Source: Archaeoglobaceae archaeon
GTDB taxonomy: Archaea; Halobacteriota; Archaeoglobi; Archaeoglobales; Archaeoglobaceae
Direction: 5' to 3'
NCBI GenBank assembly: GCA_038893835.1
Contig: JAWAQR010000001.1
Location: forward strand, 63,382-127,381
Length of the DNA: 64,000 nucleotides
Below the pieces are notes generated by a model. The model was not told the DNA's origin, did no database searches, and saw only the letters and a program-made list of their open reading frames with translations. A program made the translations under genes and the position numbers. This document shows, piece after piece, positions 41,431 to 51,904 of the stretch (positions are counted from its first letter, which is position 1; every line of letters starts with the position of its first letter).

Positions 41431-42225
41431 ATGATTACAATGAGAGTTAAAACTGGAATTTTTGGACTTGACGAATTACTTGATGGTGGTTTTGTTAAAA
41501 ACACAGTTAATGCTGTCATTGGATCCGCAGGTTGTGGAAAAACGATTTTTTGCCTCAACTTCATATTAGAAGGTCTTGAAAATGGCGATAGATGCGCTTA
41601 TATTTCTTTCGATCTCGAAACTGAGGATTTCATTAGAATTACGAGATCGATGAGATGGGATCTAAAGGATTATTTGGATAGTGAAAAGCTTAGGGTTGAA
41701 CATTTTTATGCAGAAGAGAGTAGCATAATCAATGAAAAGCTCTTCAACATAGTTGAAAAATTTGATCGAGTCGTAATCGACTCTTTTTCCCCGCTTGTCG
41801 TGTCCATGGACTCAAAAGCCAGGAGCGAGATAAACTGGTTCTTCAAGAACATGCGTAAGAGCTCCACATCGCTTATAACTATCGAAGAACCGCTTATGGG
41901 TTTCGATGCTGAATCAAACCTCTTACTCTACCTTGCGGACAGCGTCGTGTCTTTGAAAACAACTGGATATGGTGAACCCTTTGGAAGGACGCTTAGAGTT
42001 ATAAAACACCGTATGTCCTCGCATGCAGAAGGTATTTTCCCCTATTCTATCGTTGAGGGTGTTGGCATTGTTGTAGAGATAAAAAGGTGTGAAGGCTTTG
42101 AAGTCGAAAACCTTGGACTTTCACAGAAGGCAATGGAAAAAGTTCGCAGACTTTGCAAAGAGGGCTATCTTACGAAAGAAGACGTGGAGAAAATAAAAAG
42201 GAGAATAAAATGCTCGAGTTTCTGA
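41431..42225 (+). CDS. Single-domain KaiC-like (RecA-superfamily) ATPase
   Basis: RVKTGIFGLDELLDGG, GSAGCGKT, RVVIDS, YLAD, RTLRVIKHR. Confidence 0.88.
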   Translation: MITMRVKTGIFGLDELLDGGFVKNTVNAVIGSAGCGKTIFCLNFILEGLENGDRCAYISFDLETEDFIRITRSMRWDLKDYLDSEKLRVEHFYAEESSIINEKLFNIVEKFDRVVIDSFSPLVVSMDSKARSEINWFFKNMRKSSTSLITIEEPLMGFDAESNLLLYLADSVVSLKTTGYGEPFGRTLRVIKHRMSSHAEGIFPYSIVEGVGIVVEIKRCEGFEVENLGLSQKAMEKVRRLCKEGYLTKEDVEKIKRRIKCSSF

Positions 42226-42548
42226 AAGATAGTGTTGAAAAATTTCTAGCTGATCCGAGTGTTGTTATTTCTGCAGTGTATAGAATAGATGGTGTACCTA
42301 TAGTTGTGAGGATAAAGGAGAGAAAATACCTTCAATTACTGCAATTTTTTGAAGAACAAACGAGGGCTATTTTCCAACTCATCTTAGACGAAAGCTTGAA
42401 GAGCGCCGAACTCAAAACAAGGGATTACACAATACTTCTATCCCCTCTATCGAGAACGCTTGTGCTTGTACTCGTTTCGACGAGCGAGGCATCGATTTAT
42501 AAGCTAAAGATAGAGTCCGAATCCTTACGGAGCTCTTTAAATGTTTGA
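42210..42548 (+). CDS. Roadblock/LC7-like small protein (start re-placed at MLEFL)
   Basis: ADPSVVISAVYRIDGVPIV..ELKTRDYTILLSPLSRTLVLVLV pattern; GGAG SD; overlaps both neighbours. Confidence 0.6.
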   Translation: MLEFLKDSVEKFLADPSVVISAVYRIDGVPIVVRIKERKYLQLLQFFEEQTRAIFQLILDESLKSAELKTRDYTILLSPLSRTLVLVLVSTSEASIYKLKIESESLRSSLNV

Positions 42549-43746
42549 AATCCATTATACCTCAAAGACAAAAGCCGAAAGTGCGGTTGATGAAATAAAG
42601 AAATCACTAAGCATAGAACCGAATCTGGCGATATTCTTCCTTGCCGGAAATCTGAGTAAAAGTCATGAAAAGGTTAGATTGAATTGCAATTCTATTTGTG
42701 TTCCAGTTGAGGGAATAATAACTCCAAAGGGTATCTGGAGCACTGGAGTCCTTGCTTTAGCAATCGATTCTGAAGCTTGGGTTCAAAGCTTCGAGGGAGA
42801 TGCAAGCAAAGTTTATCAAAAGCTGAGAGAAGCGAAGAAGGGAGAATTTAATCTGCTGATATATCCACTTCTTTTCTTTAAAAATCGTATTCAGCTAATA
42901 AGGATTTTATTAAAGTTAAAAAGAACTTCTGAAATTGAAAAAGCATCGAAGATAGGTGAAGAAATTATATATCCGATGAACGCTATGCTGAGAGCATTCA
43001 GAGATGAGGAAAAAACTGCGGTTGCGATGAATCTGTTTCCATTGGAGTTTGGCGTTGGAATCCCAAAAATTTCTCTGAACGGTAAAGTTCTGGGAAGAAA
43101 AGTTCTATGTGTTTCTTTTAAGGAAAAAATCGACTGCGAGTTCACAGACGCTTTTCCAGAGAGAGGAAAGAGCTTTGAAGAAACTGCAGAAATTCTTGCC
43201 AATGAGCTTACCAACGCTAAGAAAGTTTCCATTGTGAAAAAGGGTATAGCGATAAAGGAGATCGATGGAATGAGCGTTAGAGAATTTTTAAGGAAGCAAG
43301 GTCTCATAATGAGGGAAAATGTTGAAAAAGACTTGAGCACAGAAAAGTTCTTCGGCGCTACACCTTATGTGCTTTGCCTGATAAGCAAAGAGACTTATGG
43401 CTCTTCTGCGCTGGGATTGATGGACTACGATCTGAAGTTCTATCCATCTTTTTTCGACACCGACGTTTTTTACGATAAGGCGTTGTTTGCTGGAGAATTC
43501 ATAAGAGGGGGCATGAAGAGAGTGATCGAAGAAGTTCGCGAAGCTGATTTTGCTATAATCGACCAGAACTTCATGCTGATGTTTGAAGAACGAATCGTGG
43601 AAATCTCAAAAATTCTCAAAGGCTATGGTATCATTTCTTCCTACCCCTCATACACGGGAAAATTAAGCAAGAATTTCATGAGCGAAATCGAGAGAAATGT
43701 TTGCACAAACACAACAGAAACCATGGTATTCCTAAAATTTAAGTGA
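42541..43746 (+). CDS. FIST-like sensory domain protein
   Basis: AVDEIKKSL..PNLAIFF, ICVPVEGII..GVLALAI, IKEIDGMSVREFL resemble FIST_N/FIST_C; no TM helix or output domain. Confidence 0.55.
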   Translation: MFEIHYTSKTKAESAVDEIKKSLSIEPNLAIFFLAGNLSKSHEKVRLNCNSICVPVEGIITPKGIWSTGVLALAIDSEAWVQSFEGDASKVYQKLREAKKGEFNLLIYPLLFFKNRIQLIRILLKLKRTSEIEKASKIGEEIIYPMNAMLRAFRDEEKTAVAMNLFPLEFGVGIPKISLNGKVLGRKVLCVSFKEKIDCEFTDAFPERGKSFEETAEILANELTNAKKVSIVKKGIAIKEIDGMSVREFLRKQGLIMRENVEKDLSTEKFFGATPYVLCLISKETYGSSALGLMDYDLKFYPSFFDTDVFYDKALFAGEFIRGGMKRVIEEVREADFAIIDQNFMLMFEERIVEISKILKGYGIISSYPSYTGKLSKNFMSEIERNVCTNTTETMVFLKFK

Positions 43747-44604
43747 GAGTATCGAGAGCAGAGCAAAGGTAATTGGATAACTCAACGCATATATCCTTAT
43801 CGCGTTGAAAGTTTCAACACTTAATTCCCAGTTGCGCTTTTTTATTGAAAAAATAGAATATAAAACTGGAATCAATATAAAAGCCGTGAATGCTGACCGA
43901 CTTGGGAGAAGAGATAAGAAAGATAAAATTGGAATGAGTAAAATCACCGAAACCAATACTGAAGCAGAAATCTTGAAGAGAGTTCTTGGAGAAAGGACTA
44001 TCGCAAGTGTTTTGTAACCAGCGATTGCGTCCGAGGTTATGTCCTTAAGATCTTTCAGCAGAACACCTGATATGTAGAGGGAAGCAGAGATCAAGGAAAA
44101 GACCAAGGCAGTTGTTGAAAATGGAGCAAAAAAAGTCCAAAGTAACGCTGGAAAACTTGGCGTCACAATTAAATATGTCAAAAGCTCAGTTCTGTAGTCT
44201 TCTTTTAACCTTTTAAACTTTTTGCCAAAGAACTGCTTGTCCGAATAAATCCACGTCAATAGAGCGCAAATAAGGAAAAGCGGGATTGAAATAGAGTCTT
44301 TGGAGAAGATCAGAATTGAAGCAGAAAGAAAATAAAATAGAATCGAAAAAATCGTCGCTTCTTTTCTTCTATTGATCAAAAAAATTGCATGTTCTCTTCC
44401 ATCTCTCGCATCGTCTTCCGCATCGTTTAAATGATTCCAGAGATTTGCAGCGGTAAAGAAAAAGAAACAAAAGATATAAGATAACAGAAATTCAAGAATT
44501 CCAGAGTTTGAAAGAGAAAAGGCTAAAAAAGAGGCTAAAGGCAAAGGATACGCCACGTTCACGGGTTTTGCTCCAAATTTTAAAAATAATTTATATCTTT
44601 TCAG
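43732..44604 (-). CDS. UbiA-family membrane prenyltransferase (start uncertain: CTG 44604, GTG 44562 or GTG 44673)
   Basis: NHLNDAEDD and DLKDITSD..GYKT Asp-rich motifs, WIYS, multiple TM helices. Confidence 0.85.
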   Translation of the reverse strand: MKRYKLFLKFGAKPVNVAYPLPLASFLAFSLSNSGILEFLLSYIFCFFFFTAANLWNHLNDAEDDARDGREHAIFLINRRKEATIFSILFYFLSASILIFSKDSISIPLFLICALLTWIYSDKQFFGKKFKRLKEDYRTELLTYLIVTPSFPALLWTFFAPFSTTALVFSLISASLYISGVLLKDLKDITSDAIAGYKTLAIVLSPRTLFKISASVLVSVILLIPILSFLSLLPSRSAFTAFILIPVLYSIFSIKKRNWELSVETFNAIRIYALSYPITFALLSILSLKF

Positions 44605-44660
44605 CCTGCAAATATCTTTACCTTCTTGAAGACCTCCTCCGCCTTCTTCTTTTCTTCCAT
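44601..44660 (-). CDS. 19-aa small ORF MEEKKKAEEVFKKVKIFAG
   Basis: ATG at 44660, TGA at 44603-44601, GGTGA SD 6 nt upstream, BRE/TATA about 35 nt upstream; GAA/GAG/AAG-rich codons typical of this genome. Confidence 0.6.
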   Translation of the reverse strand: MEEKKKAEEVFKKVKIFAG

Positions 44661-44694
44661 ACCTGTTCACCACTAATTACTATGAACTATCTAG

Positions 44695-44710
44695 TATTTA
44701 AATTTTTTCT
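44695..44710 (-). promoter_or_regulatory. BRE/TATA promoter of the small ORF-ubiA unit
   Basis: Minus strand AGAAAAAA-TTTAAATA. Confidence 0.65.
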
Positions 44711-44797
44711 TTATTATAATAATAATTATTACAATTACTATCAGGCAGAAAAAATCGGGAGAGGTCAAAGTTTAAATATTGCGGAAATACTTTTGAT

Positions 44798-45358
44798 GTG
44801 ATAAAAGAGATGATAAAAGAGATACTAGACCAGAAGGCCGATAGAAATGTTAAGGCTGCAGTTTTGGTCCCAATCTTAAAATGTACGGATTCAAAAATCG
44901 TTATGATAAAAAGAGGTAAGAATCTCACGCGAAGCGCTGGGCATGTGGCATTTCCAGGAGGGATGATCGAGGGAGGAGAGGATGTTGTTGAAACGGCTTT
45001 GAGAGAGTTTGAGGAAGAGTTGGGTGTTAAAAAGGATAAAATAGAGGTTTTAGGGTTTCTGAAATCTAGAGAAGTTCTTGAATATAGGATAAAAATATGT
45101 CCAGTTGTTGGATTCACTCAGGAGAATTACTTCTTCCCAGATTCAAAGGAAGTGAGCAAAGTTCTAATAGATAAACTTGAGAAAGTTCTTCTTTCGAGAA
45201 GAGTTGCGGATTGGGGTGCAAATTTTGAATGCGCTGGTGAACTCGTCTGGGGGGCTTCTAGTAGAGTTCTGGATGACCTATACCTTCGCATCGTCCGAAG
45301 ATATGGTTCGGTTAAAAGCTTTTTCGAAAGGTCGAGGGATTATGCTGGAAGGTGTTAG
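44798..45358 (+). CDS. Nudix hydrolase, CoA pyrophosphatase-like
   Basis: AAVLVP, GHVAFPGG..ETALREFEEELG, VWGAS. Confidence 0.88.
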   Translation: MIKEMIKEILDQKADRNVKAAVLVPILKCTDSKIVMIKRGKNLTRSAGHVAFPGGMIEGGEDVVETALREFEEELGVKKDKIEVLGFLKSREVLEYRIKICPVVGFTQENYFFPDSKEVSKVLIDKLEKVLLSRRVADWGANFECAGELVWGASSRVLDDLYLRIVRRYGSVKSFFERSRDYAGRC

Positions 45359-47701: not shown

Positions 47702-49201
47702 TCACAGATAGATAATCTTTGCGAGAGGGATGAAAAAATTTATTGCGATCAGAAAGAGGAAGAGCCGTATGAATGCATTACTCCTTTCCAAAACTTTTTC
47801 AAGTTTTTTTAGAGTATCTCCAAGAACTCTAACATTGACTCTCGACTCAGAATACCGGAATTCTCTCTTTTCTAGCTTTAAATTCTTGCATTTTTCAATC
47901 AACTCGTCAAGAATTTTATAGTCATCAGCGCAGCTACCCGCTGGTTTGTAAGATTCCTTTAATCTTACACCCGTCTTGGAATGATTGTCTGTGGAACAGA
48001 CTATCGCTTTAAATCCGATTTCTTCGAATCTCTTTTCAACCAACTTTCTAAATTCCAATTCGACGTTGTTGGAGTCGAAGACGACTATTGCAAATTTTTC
48101 TTCGCATTCAATGAGTAATGCAGAAACGTAATTTACTATGCTTTCACTTTCTGCATTTATTTTTACAAAGGCAGATTTTATTTCAACGATTTCCGAATCT
48201 ATTTTTTCAGCGATTTTTACGAGTTCTTCTATTTCTTTCACCTCTTCAAAACTCAAATTTCCGTAAGAATTCGCATTGTGGCAATCAACGATGAAATCGC
48301 TGGAGTTGATTGAGAAGTCATCTATCCTATTTTTTCCACTAACAAATATTAATTTTATTTTATCAAAAGGGAAGCAGAAAATGTTGAAGTTTTTTCCATC
48401 AACTTTGAAAGGTTTTTTTGCCTTTAAGATTTCTCCACCACATTTTAAAGCATTTTTTATCTTCACAACATCTTCTTCGCTAACAGGATCCCTCTCATGG
48501 CTCGTTGGAGAGTGTAGATAAACTGAATCCGGAAAATTCAGCATATTTACGAGCCTAGCTCCTCCAATGTTTCTAAAAGGCCCTGGATGGAAATCTGTAG
48601 AGATAAGCTTTATCTCTCCCACGCTAAGGCATCTAATTCTTCCTTCAAAGCTTTTAGAGTCTTTTTTTAAAGTAGATTCAACGAATCTTGGATTATTTGT
48701 GAGCCAGAACCATATGAAACTTCTTATGTATTCTTTTAACCTGAAGTTCGTGGAGTCCAAATAGCGTGTGTATAAAAAGAAGAGGAGGGAAGAAATTGTC
48801 AAAAATGGTATGGAGTTTGGCTCTAGGATTAAGAATGGAATGGAGGAAATGATTGCAGAACTAATGATTCCCTTTTCAGAGCAGAAGTAGAGAACTGCAA
48901 GAAAAAGGAAAAAGACACCAGAAAAACTTCCTGAAATTAAAAAAGATAGAAATCCAAGTAAGGAAATTAGTGTTGTTAAAAAGAGTGTCCTTTTCAAGTT
49001 GAACTTTAAAGCGATCAGAAATCTGGCTGCGAAAATTGTAAGAATCAGGGAAATTATAAAAATTAGATTTCTAAAATCGAGAATGGATAAAACTATAGTT
49101 GAAATCGCAAATGCTGCCAGAGTTTTTTGGATTCCTGGCAAGACAAAAAGTTTTTTATAAAGATTTTCGGCATTCATAACTGTTTCCTTATCTCTTCCCA
49201 T
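47702..49201 (-). CDS. DUF2070-like membrane protein
   Basis: N-terminal TMs, HPGPFRNIGG, H..SHERD, VDCHN, DSNN, STDNH, C-terminal TM. Confidence 0.75.
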   Translation of the reverse strand: MGRDKETVMNAENLYKKLFVLPGIQKTLAAFAISTIVLSILDFRNLIFIISLILTIFAARFLIALKFNLKRTLFLTTLISLLGFLSFLISGSFSGVFFLFLAVLYFCSEKGIISSAIISSIPFLILEPNSIPFLTISSLLFFLYTRYLDSTNFRLKEYIRSFIWFWLTNNPRFVESTLKKDSKSFEGRIRCLSVGEIKLISTDFHPGPFRNIGGARLVNMLNFPDSVYLHSPTSHERDPVSEEDVVKIKNALKCGGEILKAKKPFKVDGKNFNIFCFPFDKIKLIFVSGKNRIDDFSINSSDFIVDCHNANSYGNLSFEEVKEIEELVKIAEKIDSEIVEIKSAFVKINAESESIVNYVSALLIECEEKFAIVVFDSNNVELEFRKLVEKRFEEIGFKAIVCSTDNHSKTGVRLKESYKPAGSCADDYKILDELIEKCKNLKLEKREFRYSESRVNVRVLGDTLKKLEKVLERSNAFIRLFLFLIAINFFIPLAKIIYL

Positions 49202-50616
49202 AGCCCATTTATCTTAGCCTTTACTTCTTCAGACATTTCAACGACTTCTGGCCATTCTCTTTCATATCCCTCTTCTCTCATCTTCTTCGTCGCATCTATT
49301 CCAAGCTTTCCCGCCAAACATTGTATATAGGCTGAATGATCCAACGCATCTGTTGGGGAGGGAGGAAGAAGCAACGCATCTCTTGCCGGATCAAATCTCG
49401 TGGAAATAGCCCAGAGAACTTCGCCAATGTTGTGAACGTTTATGTCCTCATCCACTACGATTATGATTTTCGTTAGAGAGAGCATTCCAAGACCCCAGAG
49501 AGAGTACATTACCTTCTTTGCCTGTCCAGGATAACGCTTTTTTATCGATACAATCGCAATTCCATGAAATCCTCCCTCTACTGGCAGATTCATGTCCACA
49601 ATCTCGGGATTTAAAAACTTTATCAAAGGTAAAAAAATCCTTTCAGTTGCCTTTCCAAGCCAGGCATCCTCCATAGGCGGTTTACCAACTATTGTTGCAT
49701 GATAAATCGGATTCTCTCTATGCGTTATGTTTTCAATATGGAAAACAGGGTAAGGTTCTGGGGGTGTATAGTAGCCTGTGTGATCTCCAAATGGCCCTTC
49801 AATGCGGAGTTCATCAACTCTAACAAATCCTTCAAGCACGATTTCAGCCGTTGCTGGAACCATTAAATCTACAGTCTCGCATTCCACCATCTCAACCTTT
49901 TCCCCCCTTAAAAATCCAGCAAATGCAAATTCGCTCACGCCCTCCGGAACAGGAGCTGTTGCTGAGTATAGAACAGCTGGATCTACGCCTATTGCGACTG
50001 CTACCTCAATTTTATCCATTCCCATATCCTTAGCTTTCCTCAAATTCTCTGCCCCATGTTTGTGAACTTGCCAGTGCATTCCTGTAGTCTTTTCATCAAA
50101 TACCTGCATTCTATAAACCCCTGCATTCAGCTCACCACTTATTGGATCTTTTGTTATCACTACTGGAAGAGTTATAAATCTACCACCATCCTTAGGCCAG
50201 CACTTTAAAATCGGGAACTTCTCAAGACTTTCAGCCCTCTTTTCTTGGCACGGAGCATTTTTAACTTTTTTTGGAGACATTGAGAGCAAGTCCTTGAAGT
50301 GTTCAATACTCCTGATCGCATCAAAAATCGAGGATGGTCTCTTTTTAAGAATCGAAATAATCCTATTTCCTATTTCATCAAAACTCTTAACTTCTAGAGC
50401 CATCAACATCCTTTTTTCACTACCAAAAACGTTCGTTAAAACGGGAATAGAATAACCCTTAGGTCTTTCGAAAAGAAGAGCTTTACCACCTTTTTTAACA
50501 ACCCTGTTTGTAACTTCCGTTATTTCTAGAATTGGACTCAATTCTGTATTTATTCTGGCAAGTTCATTCTCCTTTTCAAGTCTTTCCATGAACTCTCGAA
50601 GGTCTCGATAGGGCAT
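49174..50616 (-). CDS. ubiD: UbiD-family (prFMN) decarboxylase, menaquinone-pathway type
   Basis: DLREF, WPKDGGRFIT, NAGVYRMQ, EGPFGDHTGYY, GIDATKK. Confidence 0.88.
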   Translation of the reverse strand: MPYRDLREFMERLEKENELARINTELSPILEITEVTNRVVKKGGKALLFERPKGYSIPVLTNVFGSEKRMLMALEVKSFDEIGNRIISILKKRPSSIFDAIRSIEHFKDLLSMSPKKVKNAPCQEKRAESLEKFPILKCWPKDGGRFITLPVVITKDPISGELNAGVYRMQVFDEKTTGMHWQVHKHGAENLRKAKDMGMDKIEVAVAIGVDPAVLYSATAPVPEGVSEFAFAGFLRGEKVEMVECETVDLMVPATAEIVLEGFVRVDELRIEGPFGDHTGYYTPPEPYPVFHIENITHRENPIYHATIVGKPPMEDAWLGKATERIFLPLIKFLNPEIVDMNLPVEGGFHGIAIVSIKKRYPGQAKKVMYSLWGLGMLSLTKIIIVVDEDINVHNIGEVLWAISTRFDPARDALLLPPSPTDALDHSAYIQCLAGKLGIDATKKMREEGYEREWPEVVEMSEEVKAKINGLWEEIRKQL

Positions 50617-50686
50617 AAAGTTAGGATGATTTTAAAAATATAACCCATGCAAAAGCTATTTAACGCATTCGATCCAAATATGCAAA

Positions 50687-51904
50687 ATGAAAGTTGCAAT
50701 TATTGGTGCAGGATTGACTGGGTTAAGATGTGCAAAAGAGCTGTCTGAATTCGTAAAAGTCAAGGTTTTTGAAAAGAACTCTCCTGGTGGTCTTCTTTCA
50801 AGTTTTCGCAAGGAATATTACATTGAGAAGTTTTATCATCATGCATTCAAAACGGATTCGGAGCTATTGAGTGTTATAAAAGAGCTGGGTCTGGCTTCAA
50901 AATTGGTTTGGAAAACTGTAAAAGTTGGTATTGCTAAAGAGGGGAAAATTTACTCACTCAGTACACCAATGGAAATTCTAAAATTCCCTTACATGAGTCT
51001 AATAGAAAAGTTTAAACTTGCGATTTTCACACTGAGAAGTAAGAAAAGAAATTTCAAGGAATTTGACGAAATAGGTGCAATTGAGGCGATAAGAAAAGAG
51101 CTTGGAGAAAATTTACTTAGGAACTTTTTCATTCCAATGTTAAGGGCAAAATTTGGCGAAAATGCAGAAGTTGTTAGTTATGCCTGGCTTCTTGCACGTG
51201 TTGCAATAAGGAGCAACAGAAAGTTGAAGGGGGAAGAAATAGGTTATTTAAGGCACGGATTTTATCAGCTAGTAGAAAAATTGAGCGAAGATATAGAGGT
51301 TTTAAATGAAAGAGCGAAGATCACTTTTAATGGAAAATGGAGCGTAAATGGAGAATATTTTGATGTAATCGTTTTTACAGCTCCATTACCGGAGCTTGGG
51401 GAGTTTAGAGAGAGATTTGGAATTCCTGAAGTGAAATACCAAAGCTCGATTTGCGCTTTGCTTTCTTTAAAGCAAAGCATTTCTGACGTTTACTGGATTA
51501 ACGTTGATGGAGCATCTTTTGGAGCGATAATAGAGCACACGAACTTCATGCCCCTCGAAGATTATGGAGAAGTCCTAGTATATCTTGCCAGCTACTCAAC
51601 GCCAGAAAGCGAGTTATTCAATTCACCAGATTCGGTGATAGAAAAGATATTTTTGAGGGATTTACAAAAATTTGGAATTGGTGAGAAAGATGTAAATTGG
51701 ATCAAGATATTTAAAGCGAAGTTCAGCTCTCCAATATATGAAAAGGGATTCTTAAAGAAAATAACCCCCTATAAAGTTTACGATGGTTTTTATGTTGCAG
51801 GTATGACTTCTAGACCGAACTATCCGGAGAGAAGCATGAATGGAAGTCTGATTGCTGGAAGAGAGGTTGCTGAGGAGATAAAGAAGGATTATGGTTTCAA
51901 ATGA
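50687..51904 (+). CDS. FAD-dependent oxidoreductase (protoporphyrinogen/amine oxidase-like)
   Basis: GAGLTG, GGL, IEKFYHH, IIEHTNF, YPERSMNG. Confidence 0.8.
   Translation: MKVAIIGAGLTGLRCAKELSEFVKVKVFEKNSPGGLLSSFRKEYYIEKFYHHAFKTDSELLSVIKELGLASKLVWKTVKVGIAKEGKIYSLSTPMEILKFPYMSLIEKFKLAIFTLRSKKRNFKEFDEIGAIEAIRKELGENLLRNFFIPMLRAKFGENAEVVSYAWLLARVAIRSNRKLKGEEIGYLRHGFYQLVEKLSEDIEVLNERAKITFNGKWSVNGEYFDVIVFTAPLPELGEFRERFGIPEVKYQSSICALLSLKQSISDVYWINVDGASFGAIIEHTNFMPLEDYGEVLVYLASYSTPESELFNSPDSVIEKIFLRDLQKFGIGEKDVNWIKIFKAKFSSPIYEKGFLKKITPYKVYDGFYVAGMTSRPNYPERSMNGSLIAGREVAEEIKKDYGFK

Follow-up and report, generated by a model that had tools for sequence, protein, structure and literature searches.

Very short proteins that act as subunits or regulators of membrane enzymes and transporters are well known in bacteria (CydX, KdpF, AcrZ and PmrR), and the one-helix protein HliD binds chlorophyll synthase, an enzyme of the UbiA family. 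In archaea, few microproteins have a known partner. Here we describe a small open reading frame (ORF) of 19 codons that stands in front of a gene for a UbiA-type membrane prenyltransferase (hereafter ubiA) in a 64,000-nucleotide stretch of the genome of an Archaeoglobaceae archaeon (assembly GCA_038893835.1, contig JAWAQR010000001.1, positions 63,382 to 127,381 of the forward strand); this whole stretch is called the window. The small ORF belongs to a gene of 19-31 amino acids that gene callers have overlooked, and which is retained next to a single enzyme throughout the order Archaeoglobales and in Methanoperedens-like archaea. We put at about even the chance that its product is a co-expressed microprotein partner or regulator that binds the UbiA enzyme, with a nested ubiA start in this clade.

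Like CydX, KdpF, AcrZ, PmrR and HliD, the product is a very short protein whose gene adjoins, and is expressed together with, that of a membrane enzyme, its predicted binding partner. Those proteins are, however, hydrophobic transmembrane helices, whereas the peptide described here is highly charged, cytoplasmic and without a Pfam or NCBIfam family. It also differs from CydX-type microproteins in its predicted position on the catalytic loop. In the part of the literature that was accessible to our search, no microprotein is described for archaeal UbiA enzymes. Within the same limits, a full-text search returned nothing on AF_0771 (the family to which this enzyme is assigned), and nothing that connects UbiA either to FIST or KaiC or, in Archaeoglobus, to a small ORF.

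Regulatory leader and arrest peptides such as TnaC, ErmCL, SecM and MifM offer another comparison. The small ORF shares with them its shortness, a strong ribosome-binding site ahead of the regulated gene, conservation near the stop codon and a stop that lies close to the next start. It differs from them in that the peptide is conserved even where it lies far from the downstream gene or nested in it, and in that there is no attenuator-like RNA fold here, while co-folding supports an interaction in trans. Prenylated ribosomal peptides form the last comparison. In the ComQ-ComX system and the cyanobactins, as here, a small peptide gene sits beside a prenyltransferase gene. ComQ, however, resembles polyprenyl synthases and the cyanobactin enzymes have the ABBA fold, whereas the present enzyme has the membrane UbiA fold, and the peptide lacks both a conserved acceptor residue and a leader-core layout, with processing genes missing as well. 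The enzyme shares its fold and both Asp-rich motifs with digeranylgeranylglyceryl phosphate (DGGGP) synthase (7bpu, 6m31), UBIAD1 (8djk), AfUbiA (4tq3) and ApUbiA (4od4), but its identity to these solved enzymes is 14-19% and a search of the Protein Data Bank with its sequence gave no match at E values up to 1. We regard the system as a microprotein partner or a leader of a membrane enzyme, with an unusual and probably nested layout in this clade.

If the peptide does bind the catalytic loop, it would represent a new mode of control for a UbiA-type prenyltransferase, a class of enzymes that makes lipids, quinones and haem derivatives, and it would help in finding out what the AF_0771 family and its conserved KaiC-Roadblock-FIST neighbours do. 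The gene pair occurs in three layouts (overlapping, separated and fully nested), which makes it a natural series for the study of translational coupling and dual coding in archaea. Since the cultured Archaeoglobus fulgidus carries an orthologue, the question is directly testable.

An unannotated microprotein gene

The small ORF, the elements that precede it and the enzyme gene all lie on the minus strand:

44601..44660, minus strand: small ORF, 19 codons plus TGA, encoding MEEKKKAEEVFKKVKIFAG (translation; orthologues; third-position variation; single profile match in the genome)
44667..44671, minus strand: Shine-Dalgarno sequence GGTGA, 6 nt 5' of the ATG of the small ORF (sequence)
44695..44710, minus strand: promoter, made up of an A-run resembling a transcription factor B recognition element (BRE) at 44710-44703 and the TATA box TTTAAATA at 44702-44695 (sequence; same box in orthologues)
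44711..44722, minus strand: perfect 12-bp palindrome TTATTATAATAA, a candidate operator, directly 5' of the BRE and rare in the genome
43732..44673, minus strand: UbiA-superfamily intramembrane prenyltransferase (AF_0771 family), 313 codons (Pfam PF01040; structure model; motifs)

The small ORF runs from an ATG at 44660 to a TGA at 44603-44601. An earlier note, made from the letters of the window, had pointed out this ORF together with its GGTGA, its BRE and TATA box, the CTGA overlap at its end and a GTG at 44562, and each of these features is indeed present. That note also proposed that the odd, Gly-rich N-terminus of the long UbiA ORF is a shadow of another frame, that the peptide gene is functionally tied to UbiA and that the pair is linked to the neighbouring FIST and KaiC genes; the comparative data given below bear out all three proposals.

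Orthologous loci were gathered from three sources, namely related genomes, a set with one genome per species, and metagenomes. In Archaeoglobales and Methanoperedens-like archaea, 92 of the 94 distinct loci have an equivalent ORF of 19-31 amino acids, with its own stop, 5' of the orthologous UbiA, an incidence far beyond chance. Among the genome-derived loci with enough upstream sequence, 56 of 57 carry an ORF of 19-30 codons whose stop falls just before or over the ubiA start, the sole exception without an equivalent being a locus from another class (L016). The 80 metagenome loci included 24 that lie too near a contig end and 19 duplicates of earlier loci; the small ORF was found in 36 of the 37 that were new (28 by pattern, 8 by eye) and is missing from one (L110). 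It is kept in loci with UbiA identities down to 28%, and the versions in Methanoperedens records have 29-31 codons. The consensus of the peptide is (K/R)(K/E)(E/K)-[AVI]-E-[EK]-[VT]-F-K-x-[IV]-[KR]-[LI]-[FY]-x-x-stop, with one invariant Glu, an invariance that is partly by construction because the loci were selected with a motif. Conservation is strongest over the 11 residues before the stop, and the length of the N-terminal part varies.

The pattern of variation identifies the frame under selection. Mean column entropy at codon positions 1, 2 and 3 of the small ORF is 0.71, 0.55 and 1.29, such that the third position is about twice as variable as the others. Consistently, among six close relatives third positions of the small ORF account for 12 of the 18 variable sites, and seven variable sites are silent in the small ORF while none is silent in the UbiA frame. 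It follows that the small ORF is the selected frame. No RNA structure was detected in the leader of the window (z 0.21). Selection therefore keeps the sequence of the peptide, and neither the overlapping UbiA frame nor an RNA fold. A Lys/Glu-rich microprotein is encoded by these 19 codons, which form a genuine gene that lacks annotation, and what reads as a Gly-rich 'N-terminus' in the long UbiA ORF is an unselected shadow of this gene.

The peptide gene also travels with ubiA. In a six-frame search over whole genomes, a 22-position profile of the peptide matched 16 of 41 relatives, once per genome and with E values of 3.6e-6 or better, and all 16 matches directly adjoin a UbiA orthologue. In the 22 relatives without a UbiA match there was no profile match except for one at noise level (E 0.05) inside a long ORF. 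When 401 genomes of the phylum were sampled, the profile matched 52, all within two families of one order, and none of the 334 genomes of other families; because many of the sampled genomes had supplied rows of the profile, these counts show specificity and not independent sensitivity. Within the same genus UbiA occurs in 10 of 19 genomes, and the small ORF in the same fraction. The peptide gene and UbiA are thus inherited together, one copy per genome, and the strict co-occurrence and adjacency expected of a microprotein partner are observed. The motif occurs once in the 1.17-Mb genome of the window, and no further copy of the peptide was found there. No family was recognized when seven of the peptides were scanned against Pfam and NCBIfam at E values up to 1, and a search of the ESM Atlas with a 30-residue peptide gave no usable match. 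In protein collections, 8 of 10 peptides looked up were absent and the other two, both from Methanoperedens, are 'hypothetical' or nameless.

Together with the gene for the divergent UbiA-type membrane prenyltransferase, the small ORF makes up a two-gene unit in which it comes first; an archaeal promoter of its own and a strong Shine-Dalgarno sequence precede it. In every orthologous locus listed, a Shine-Dalgarno sequence of the GGAGGTGA type stands 5-8 nt 5' of the start of the small ORF, and the distance from TATA box to ATG is 31-36 nt in 25 of the 42 loci where the pattern was found. Transcription probably starts about 22-25 nt 3' of the TATA box, at a point that would coincide with the GTG codons 44673/44670. 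The palindrome TTATTATAATAA, which is embedded in a stretch of about 40 nt of almost pure A/T, is a candidate operator for some regulator. Related A/T words occur upstream of the small ORF in 35 of 55 orthologous loci. The whole genome has two palindrome sites, the second being on contig C5 near 18256, so that a regulon cannot be read from a palindrome search. The RNA run X18 gave a single contig of 357 nt, from a relative, which spans 44300-44550 only and documents neither a start nor transcription of the small ORF.

A predicted complex of peptide and enzyme

The best-supported reading, that the peptide is a binding partner of the enzyme, was absent from the options of the earlier note; the regulatory leader that it did propose stays the main rival. 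We co-folded the peptide and the UbiA of Methanoperedens BLZ2, a pair chosen because its peptide has 30 residues, in three runs with our own alignments and with three controls. The pair scored 0.78 (0.78, 0.76 and 0.78 in the individual runs) and the best of the controls 0.00. Of 80 solved complexes 58 came up to this mark, and of 110 mismatched pairs 2, counts that hold only roughly for the present case because our own alignments were used. The partner had a predicted local distance difference test score (pLDDT) of at least 74, and contact agreement was at least 76%.

The predicted contacts fall on defined parts of both chains. On UbiA they comprise residues 194 and 197-201, inside the invariant LKDxKD...D motif, residues 216-218, and residues 273-285, which follow an invariant Trp; by homology with solved UbiA enzymes, we take these loops to face the cytoplasm and to cap the active site. 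On the peptide the contacts involve residues 14-25 and 27-28, including the invariant Glu and the conserved Phe, and their counterparts in the peptide of the window are residues 3-14 and 16-17. In the Methanoperedens pair the invariant Glu is placed on the second Asp-rich motif of the enzyme. The model supports, rather than demonstrates, physical binding of the peptide to the enzyme.

With this in mind, one may propose a mechanism in which the microprotein acts in trans, docked on the cytoplasmic face of the enzyme at the loop with the second Asp-rich motif and at the last cytoplasmic loop. It would serve there as a small subunit or as a gate of the active site, and perhaps as the handle by which the neighbouring KaiC-Roadblock-FIST module acts. 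Tight translational linkage, by stop-start overlap, short spacer or nesting, would keep the two products co-expressed. In this genome, ubiA would be translated from GTG 44673/44670, with the small ORF nested in its +1 frame.

Where ubiA begins

The long UbiA ORF begins at GTG 44673/44670, and its conserved core begins at about 44604 (LKRYKLFLKFGAKP...). The TGA of the small ORF overlaps a CTG (44604-44602) that is in frame with UbiA. Orthologues of other genera begin with an ATG that precedes the conserved (L/I)K(I/L)G(A/S)xP by a few residues, at a position that corresponds to about 44604 in the window. The earlier note had named this CTG as the ubiA start and the GTG at 44562 as the alternative, and neither found support. 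The CTG is not a conserved start, as the codon reads ATA, TTA, TTA, CTG and CTA in close relatives, and variants with TAA in place of TGA are found in co-occurring contigs; at two loci the same position is occupied by ATG (L086) or TTG (L088). The GTG at 44562 is missing in three loci (L003, L005 and L007), and a start there would remove the nearly invariant Pro of GAKP.

Across the 56 genome loci, the frame of ubiA relative to the small ORF is 0 in 16 cases, 1 in 12 and 2 in 28. The first canonical ubiA start overlaps or abuts the stop of the small ORF (TGATG, TAATG, TAAATG) in 19 of these loci, follows it by 6-35 nt in 22 and by more than 35 nt in 11, and was not found in four; the GTG of the window, at +41, is tallied as far although it lies behind the conserved Pro. 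In loci where A/T spacers of 39-86 nt separate the two genes, the small ORF is kept and TATA-like words occur 22-27 nt before the ATG of ubiA. These may constitute a second promoter, but A/T-rich sequence yields such words easily. Five loci of one clade (L046, L052, L063, L067 and L069), in which ubiA is in the same frame as the small ORF, have a conserved GGGTC-N6-GACCC hairpin directly after the stop of the small ORF. This hairpin encloses the TTG start of ubiA and is likely a coupling device.

The clade of the window is arranged differently. Between the stop of the small ORF and the first membrane helix, no canonical start is present in the window and its nearest relatives (L001-L003) or, independently, in L008 and L009. 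We grouped eight loci in which no usable start follows the small ORF. In all eight, no stop interrupts the ubiA frame over the full length of the small ORF, and this frame reaches back to a GTG or ATG at the Shine-Dalgarno sequence; the other alternative frame is open in none of them. By comparison, loci that have their own ubiA start yield 6 of 32 for the ubiA frame and 7 of 62 for the other alternative frame. Since no canonical ubiA start lies behind the small ORF in the clade of the window, the small ORF is probably nested in the ubiA ORF. Here the mRNA most likely has the ubiA start codon, GTG 44673/44670, at its 5' end, and the small ORF lies in the +1 frame; we regard it as less likely that ribosomes re-initiate at the CTG or slip by -1 within the Lys codons.

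Alternative explanations

Several points weigh against a binding partner with a nested ubiA start. Binding is a prediction, made for one pair from a genus other than that of the window, and both the transcription start and the translation of the small ORF are deduced from sequence. In helical hydrophobic moment the peptide does not exceed shuffled versions (z 0.45 for the window, median 1.27). The eight loci without a usable start represent three lineages, and three of the loci (L004, L005 and L007) have a TTG 20 nt after the stop, so that the nested start is suggestive rather than proven. In addition, a strong Shine-Dalgarno sequence on the small ORF, none on ubiA, and overlaps of stop and start are equally expected of a regulatory leader. 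This is the main rival and, while less probable than a binding partner, a serious one: the conserved nascent chain would control translation of ubiA on the same mRNA, for example through a pause at the stop codon that sets the number of ribosomes re-initiating on ubiA, and the free peptide would have no role. The small ORF is short, lies just 5' of ubiA on the same mRNA and is conserved at the level of amino acids, as such a leader should be, although its translation is deduced. Every locus has the strong ribosome-binding motif before the small ORF and none before ubiA. In 41 of the 56 loci the geometry suits a leader (19 with overlap, 22 with a gap of at most 35 nt); in 11 it does not obviously do so. 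The hairpin that holds the TTG start in one clade, and the concentration of conserved residues in the 11 before the stop, with an N-terminus of variable length, are again in keeping with a leader. However, the peptide is equally conserved where an A/T-rich spacer of 39-86 nt parts it from ubiA, the leader of the window lacks RNA structure, and in the co-fold the peptide sits on the enzyme, the controls scoring 0.00. In the clade of the window, moreover, ribosomes on a nested small ORF cannot simply pass to ubiA. As the peptide is kept under every stop-start geometry and every frame relation, a product that acts in trans fits better than a purely cis-acting one. It is possible that a cis-acting leader role coexists with binding.

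The other explanations are considerably less probable. The peptide might be an acceptor substrate of UbiA, that is, a ribosomal peptide lipidated as a signal or membrane anchor. The earlier note had put forward this kind of system, a ribosomally synthesized and post-translationally modified peptide or a pheromone, and we consider it improbable. Strict genetic linkage agrees with it, as does the predicted placement of the invariant Glu beside the diphosphate-binding Asp-rich motif. Chlorophyll synthases, one branch of the UbiA superfamily, esterify a carboxylate. The acceptor residues nevertheless speak against it: among 53 peptides Cys occurs in 5, Trp in 2, Tyr in 15, Ser or Thr in 24 and His in none, such that no Cys, Trp, Tyr, Ser, Thr or His is conserved, which argues against a role as prenyl acceptor. 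The conserved basic positions swap Lys and Arg, the C-terminal tail is variable, there is no signal sequence, no protease, transporter or exporter gene recurs beside the pair in the 11 loci scanned, and the co-fold contacts are with cytoplasmic loops, with none reported inside the cavity. A fuller version, in which UbiA lipidates its own upstream peptide, for instance on the carboxylate of the invariant Glu or on conserved Lys or Arg, with production gated by the KaiC-Roadblock-FIST module, is slightly less probable still. If true, the product would be an archaeal prenylated ribosomal peptide, and the enzyme the first member of the UbiA superfamily to modify a peptide. A programmed ribosomal frameshift, by which a share of the ribosomes that start at the ATG of the small ORF slips into the ubiA frame and the peptide doubles as the N-terminus of the enzyme in this clade, strikes us as very unlikely. 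It would account for a ubiA without a canonical start after the stop in L001-L003, L008 and L009 and for the open ubiA frame over the small ORF, and the Lys codons GAA AAG and AAA AAG resemble known -1 slippery sites. Yet L009 has no A-AAG site, L008 would require a +1 shift, there is no conserved heptamer and no downstream structure, and elsewhere in the family a frameshift is excluded by stops in the ubiA frame and by the frame relation 0. That the 19 codons are simply the true UbiA N-terminus, split by an assembly indel or a recent frameshift mutation, was conceivable in that one extra base near 44600-44610 would fuse the frames, but this explanation is refuted and we give it practically no weight. 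Of 94 loci, 92 retain the stop, and across the family the two genes stand in each of the three possible frame relations; in one locus (L006) stops interrupt the ubiA frame over the small ORF, and ubiA has an ATG of its own 20 nt beyond the stop of the small ORF; and in none of 43 homologous proteins does the peptide form the N-terminus. The indel at 44600-44610 for which the earlier note asked to inspect reads is likewise absent from contigs of three DNA runs in two studies, which cover 44594-44614 without a 1-nt indel. Public hot-spring contigs do carry a variant in which TGA is replaced by TAA, keeping the stop, and Gly by Ala in the last codon (both changes within 44602-44605), and in which 9 nt directly 3' of the small ORF are deleted in frame at 44589. 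This variant matches a relative resembling genome G005, and two close species thus seem to co-occur in those samples.

The enzyme and its neighbours

The 313-codon ORF matches Pfam UbiA PF01040 with 61 bits (cut-off 34.2, E 1.4e-16). Both Asp-rich motifs are present, N..ND...D and KD.KD...D being invariant in alignments of the family, and their loops are presumably cytoplasmic, as in solved UbiA structures. The structure model has a pLDDT of 94.4, and its nearest folds are DGGGP synthase, UBIAD1 and AfUbiA (TM-score 0.6-0.75 at 14-19% identity). By profile and membrane fold the enzyme belongs to the UbiA superfamily, and within it to the family of the uncharacterised A. fulgidus protein AF_0771. 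The names that its homologues bear point to an Archaeoglobaceae genome recovered from hot-spring metagenomes. The NCBIfam equivalogs for DGGGP synthase, MenA and chlorophyll synthase gave at best 18-27 bits against cut-offs of 212-353. In genome G009 (contig C26; loci L007 and L020) the UbiA orthologue matches in two frames, with a switch near residues 56-59, where a run of T occurs. The switch reflects an assembly indel or else a broken gene, and the upstream small ORF is intact.

The 3' end of ubiA meets that of an operon of three genes on the opposite strand:

41431..42225, plus strand: KaiC-like single-domain ATPase, first gene of the operon (Pfam PF06745, E 8e-40; kept in orthologous loci that reach that far)
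42210..42548, plus strand: 112-residue protein of the Roadblock/LC7 fold (model pLDDT 87.3; Foldseek; kept between the KaiC and FIST genes)
42541..43746, plus strand: FIST-like protein of 401 residues, convergent with ubiA and overlapping it by 15 nt at its 3' end (orthologue similarity)

The stops and starts of the operon genes overlap. The 112-residue protein has no Pfam match; its modelled secondary structure is alpha-beta-beta-alpha-beta-beta-beta-alpha, in agreement with a Roadblock/LC7 fold, and Foldseek returned MglC (7ct3), the Asgard Roadblock proteins 7f8m and 9jue, and MglB (1j3w) with probability 1.00 and TM-scores of 0.66-0.81. The FIST-like ORF of the window has no Pfam match of its own. 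It is 34% identical (E 5e-71) to an orthologue that has one, and orthologues match the Pfam FIST N domain at E values from 1e-5 to 3e-8 (24-34 bits, cut-off 23.2).

The FIST-like gene is present in all 17 relatives with a strong UbiA match, and also in one genome at a contig end. In all loci scanned, including those of Methanoperedens, the three genes, or as many of them as the locus reaches, converge on ubiA. The neighbours in the 11 scanned loci are KaiC, the Roadblock-like gene, FIST and variable housekeeping genes, and those upstream vary. From their shared, patchy occurrence, the five genes form a patchily distributed module, and the KaiC-Roadblock-FIST operon looks like an uncharacterised signalling module tied to the prenyltransferase.

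Other genes in the vicinity may bear on the product of the enzyme. In one clade a gene of the geranylgeranyl-reductase family (L045:3929-4978, plus strand) lies between ubiA and the FIST gene, on the strand of ubiA, which hints that the product is perhaps an isoprenoid lipid. Within the window, at 47702-51904 and 3-7 kb from UbiA, there are genes for a DUF2070 membrane protein, a UbiD-family decarboxylase and a flavin amine-oxidase-like protein, a possible link to isoprenoid metabolism. A 139-codon ORF without a family (44698-45117, minus strand) overlaps a NUDIX gene (44798-45358, plus strand) on the opposite strand and is presumably a shadow ORF. The TTG listed as the start of hisD (45177) likewise lies within the NUDIX gene and was probably set too early.

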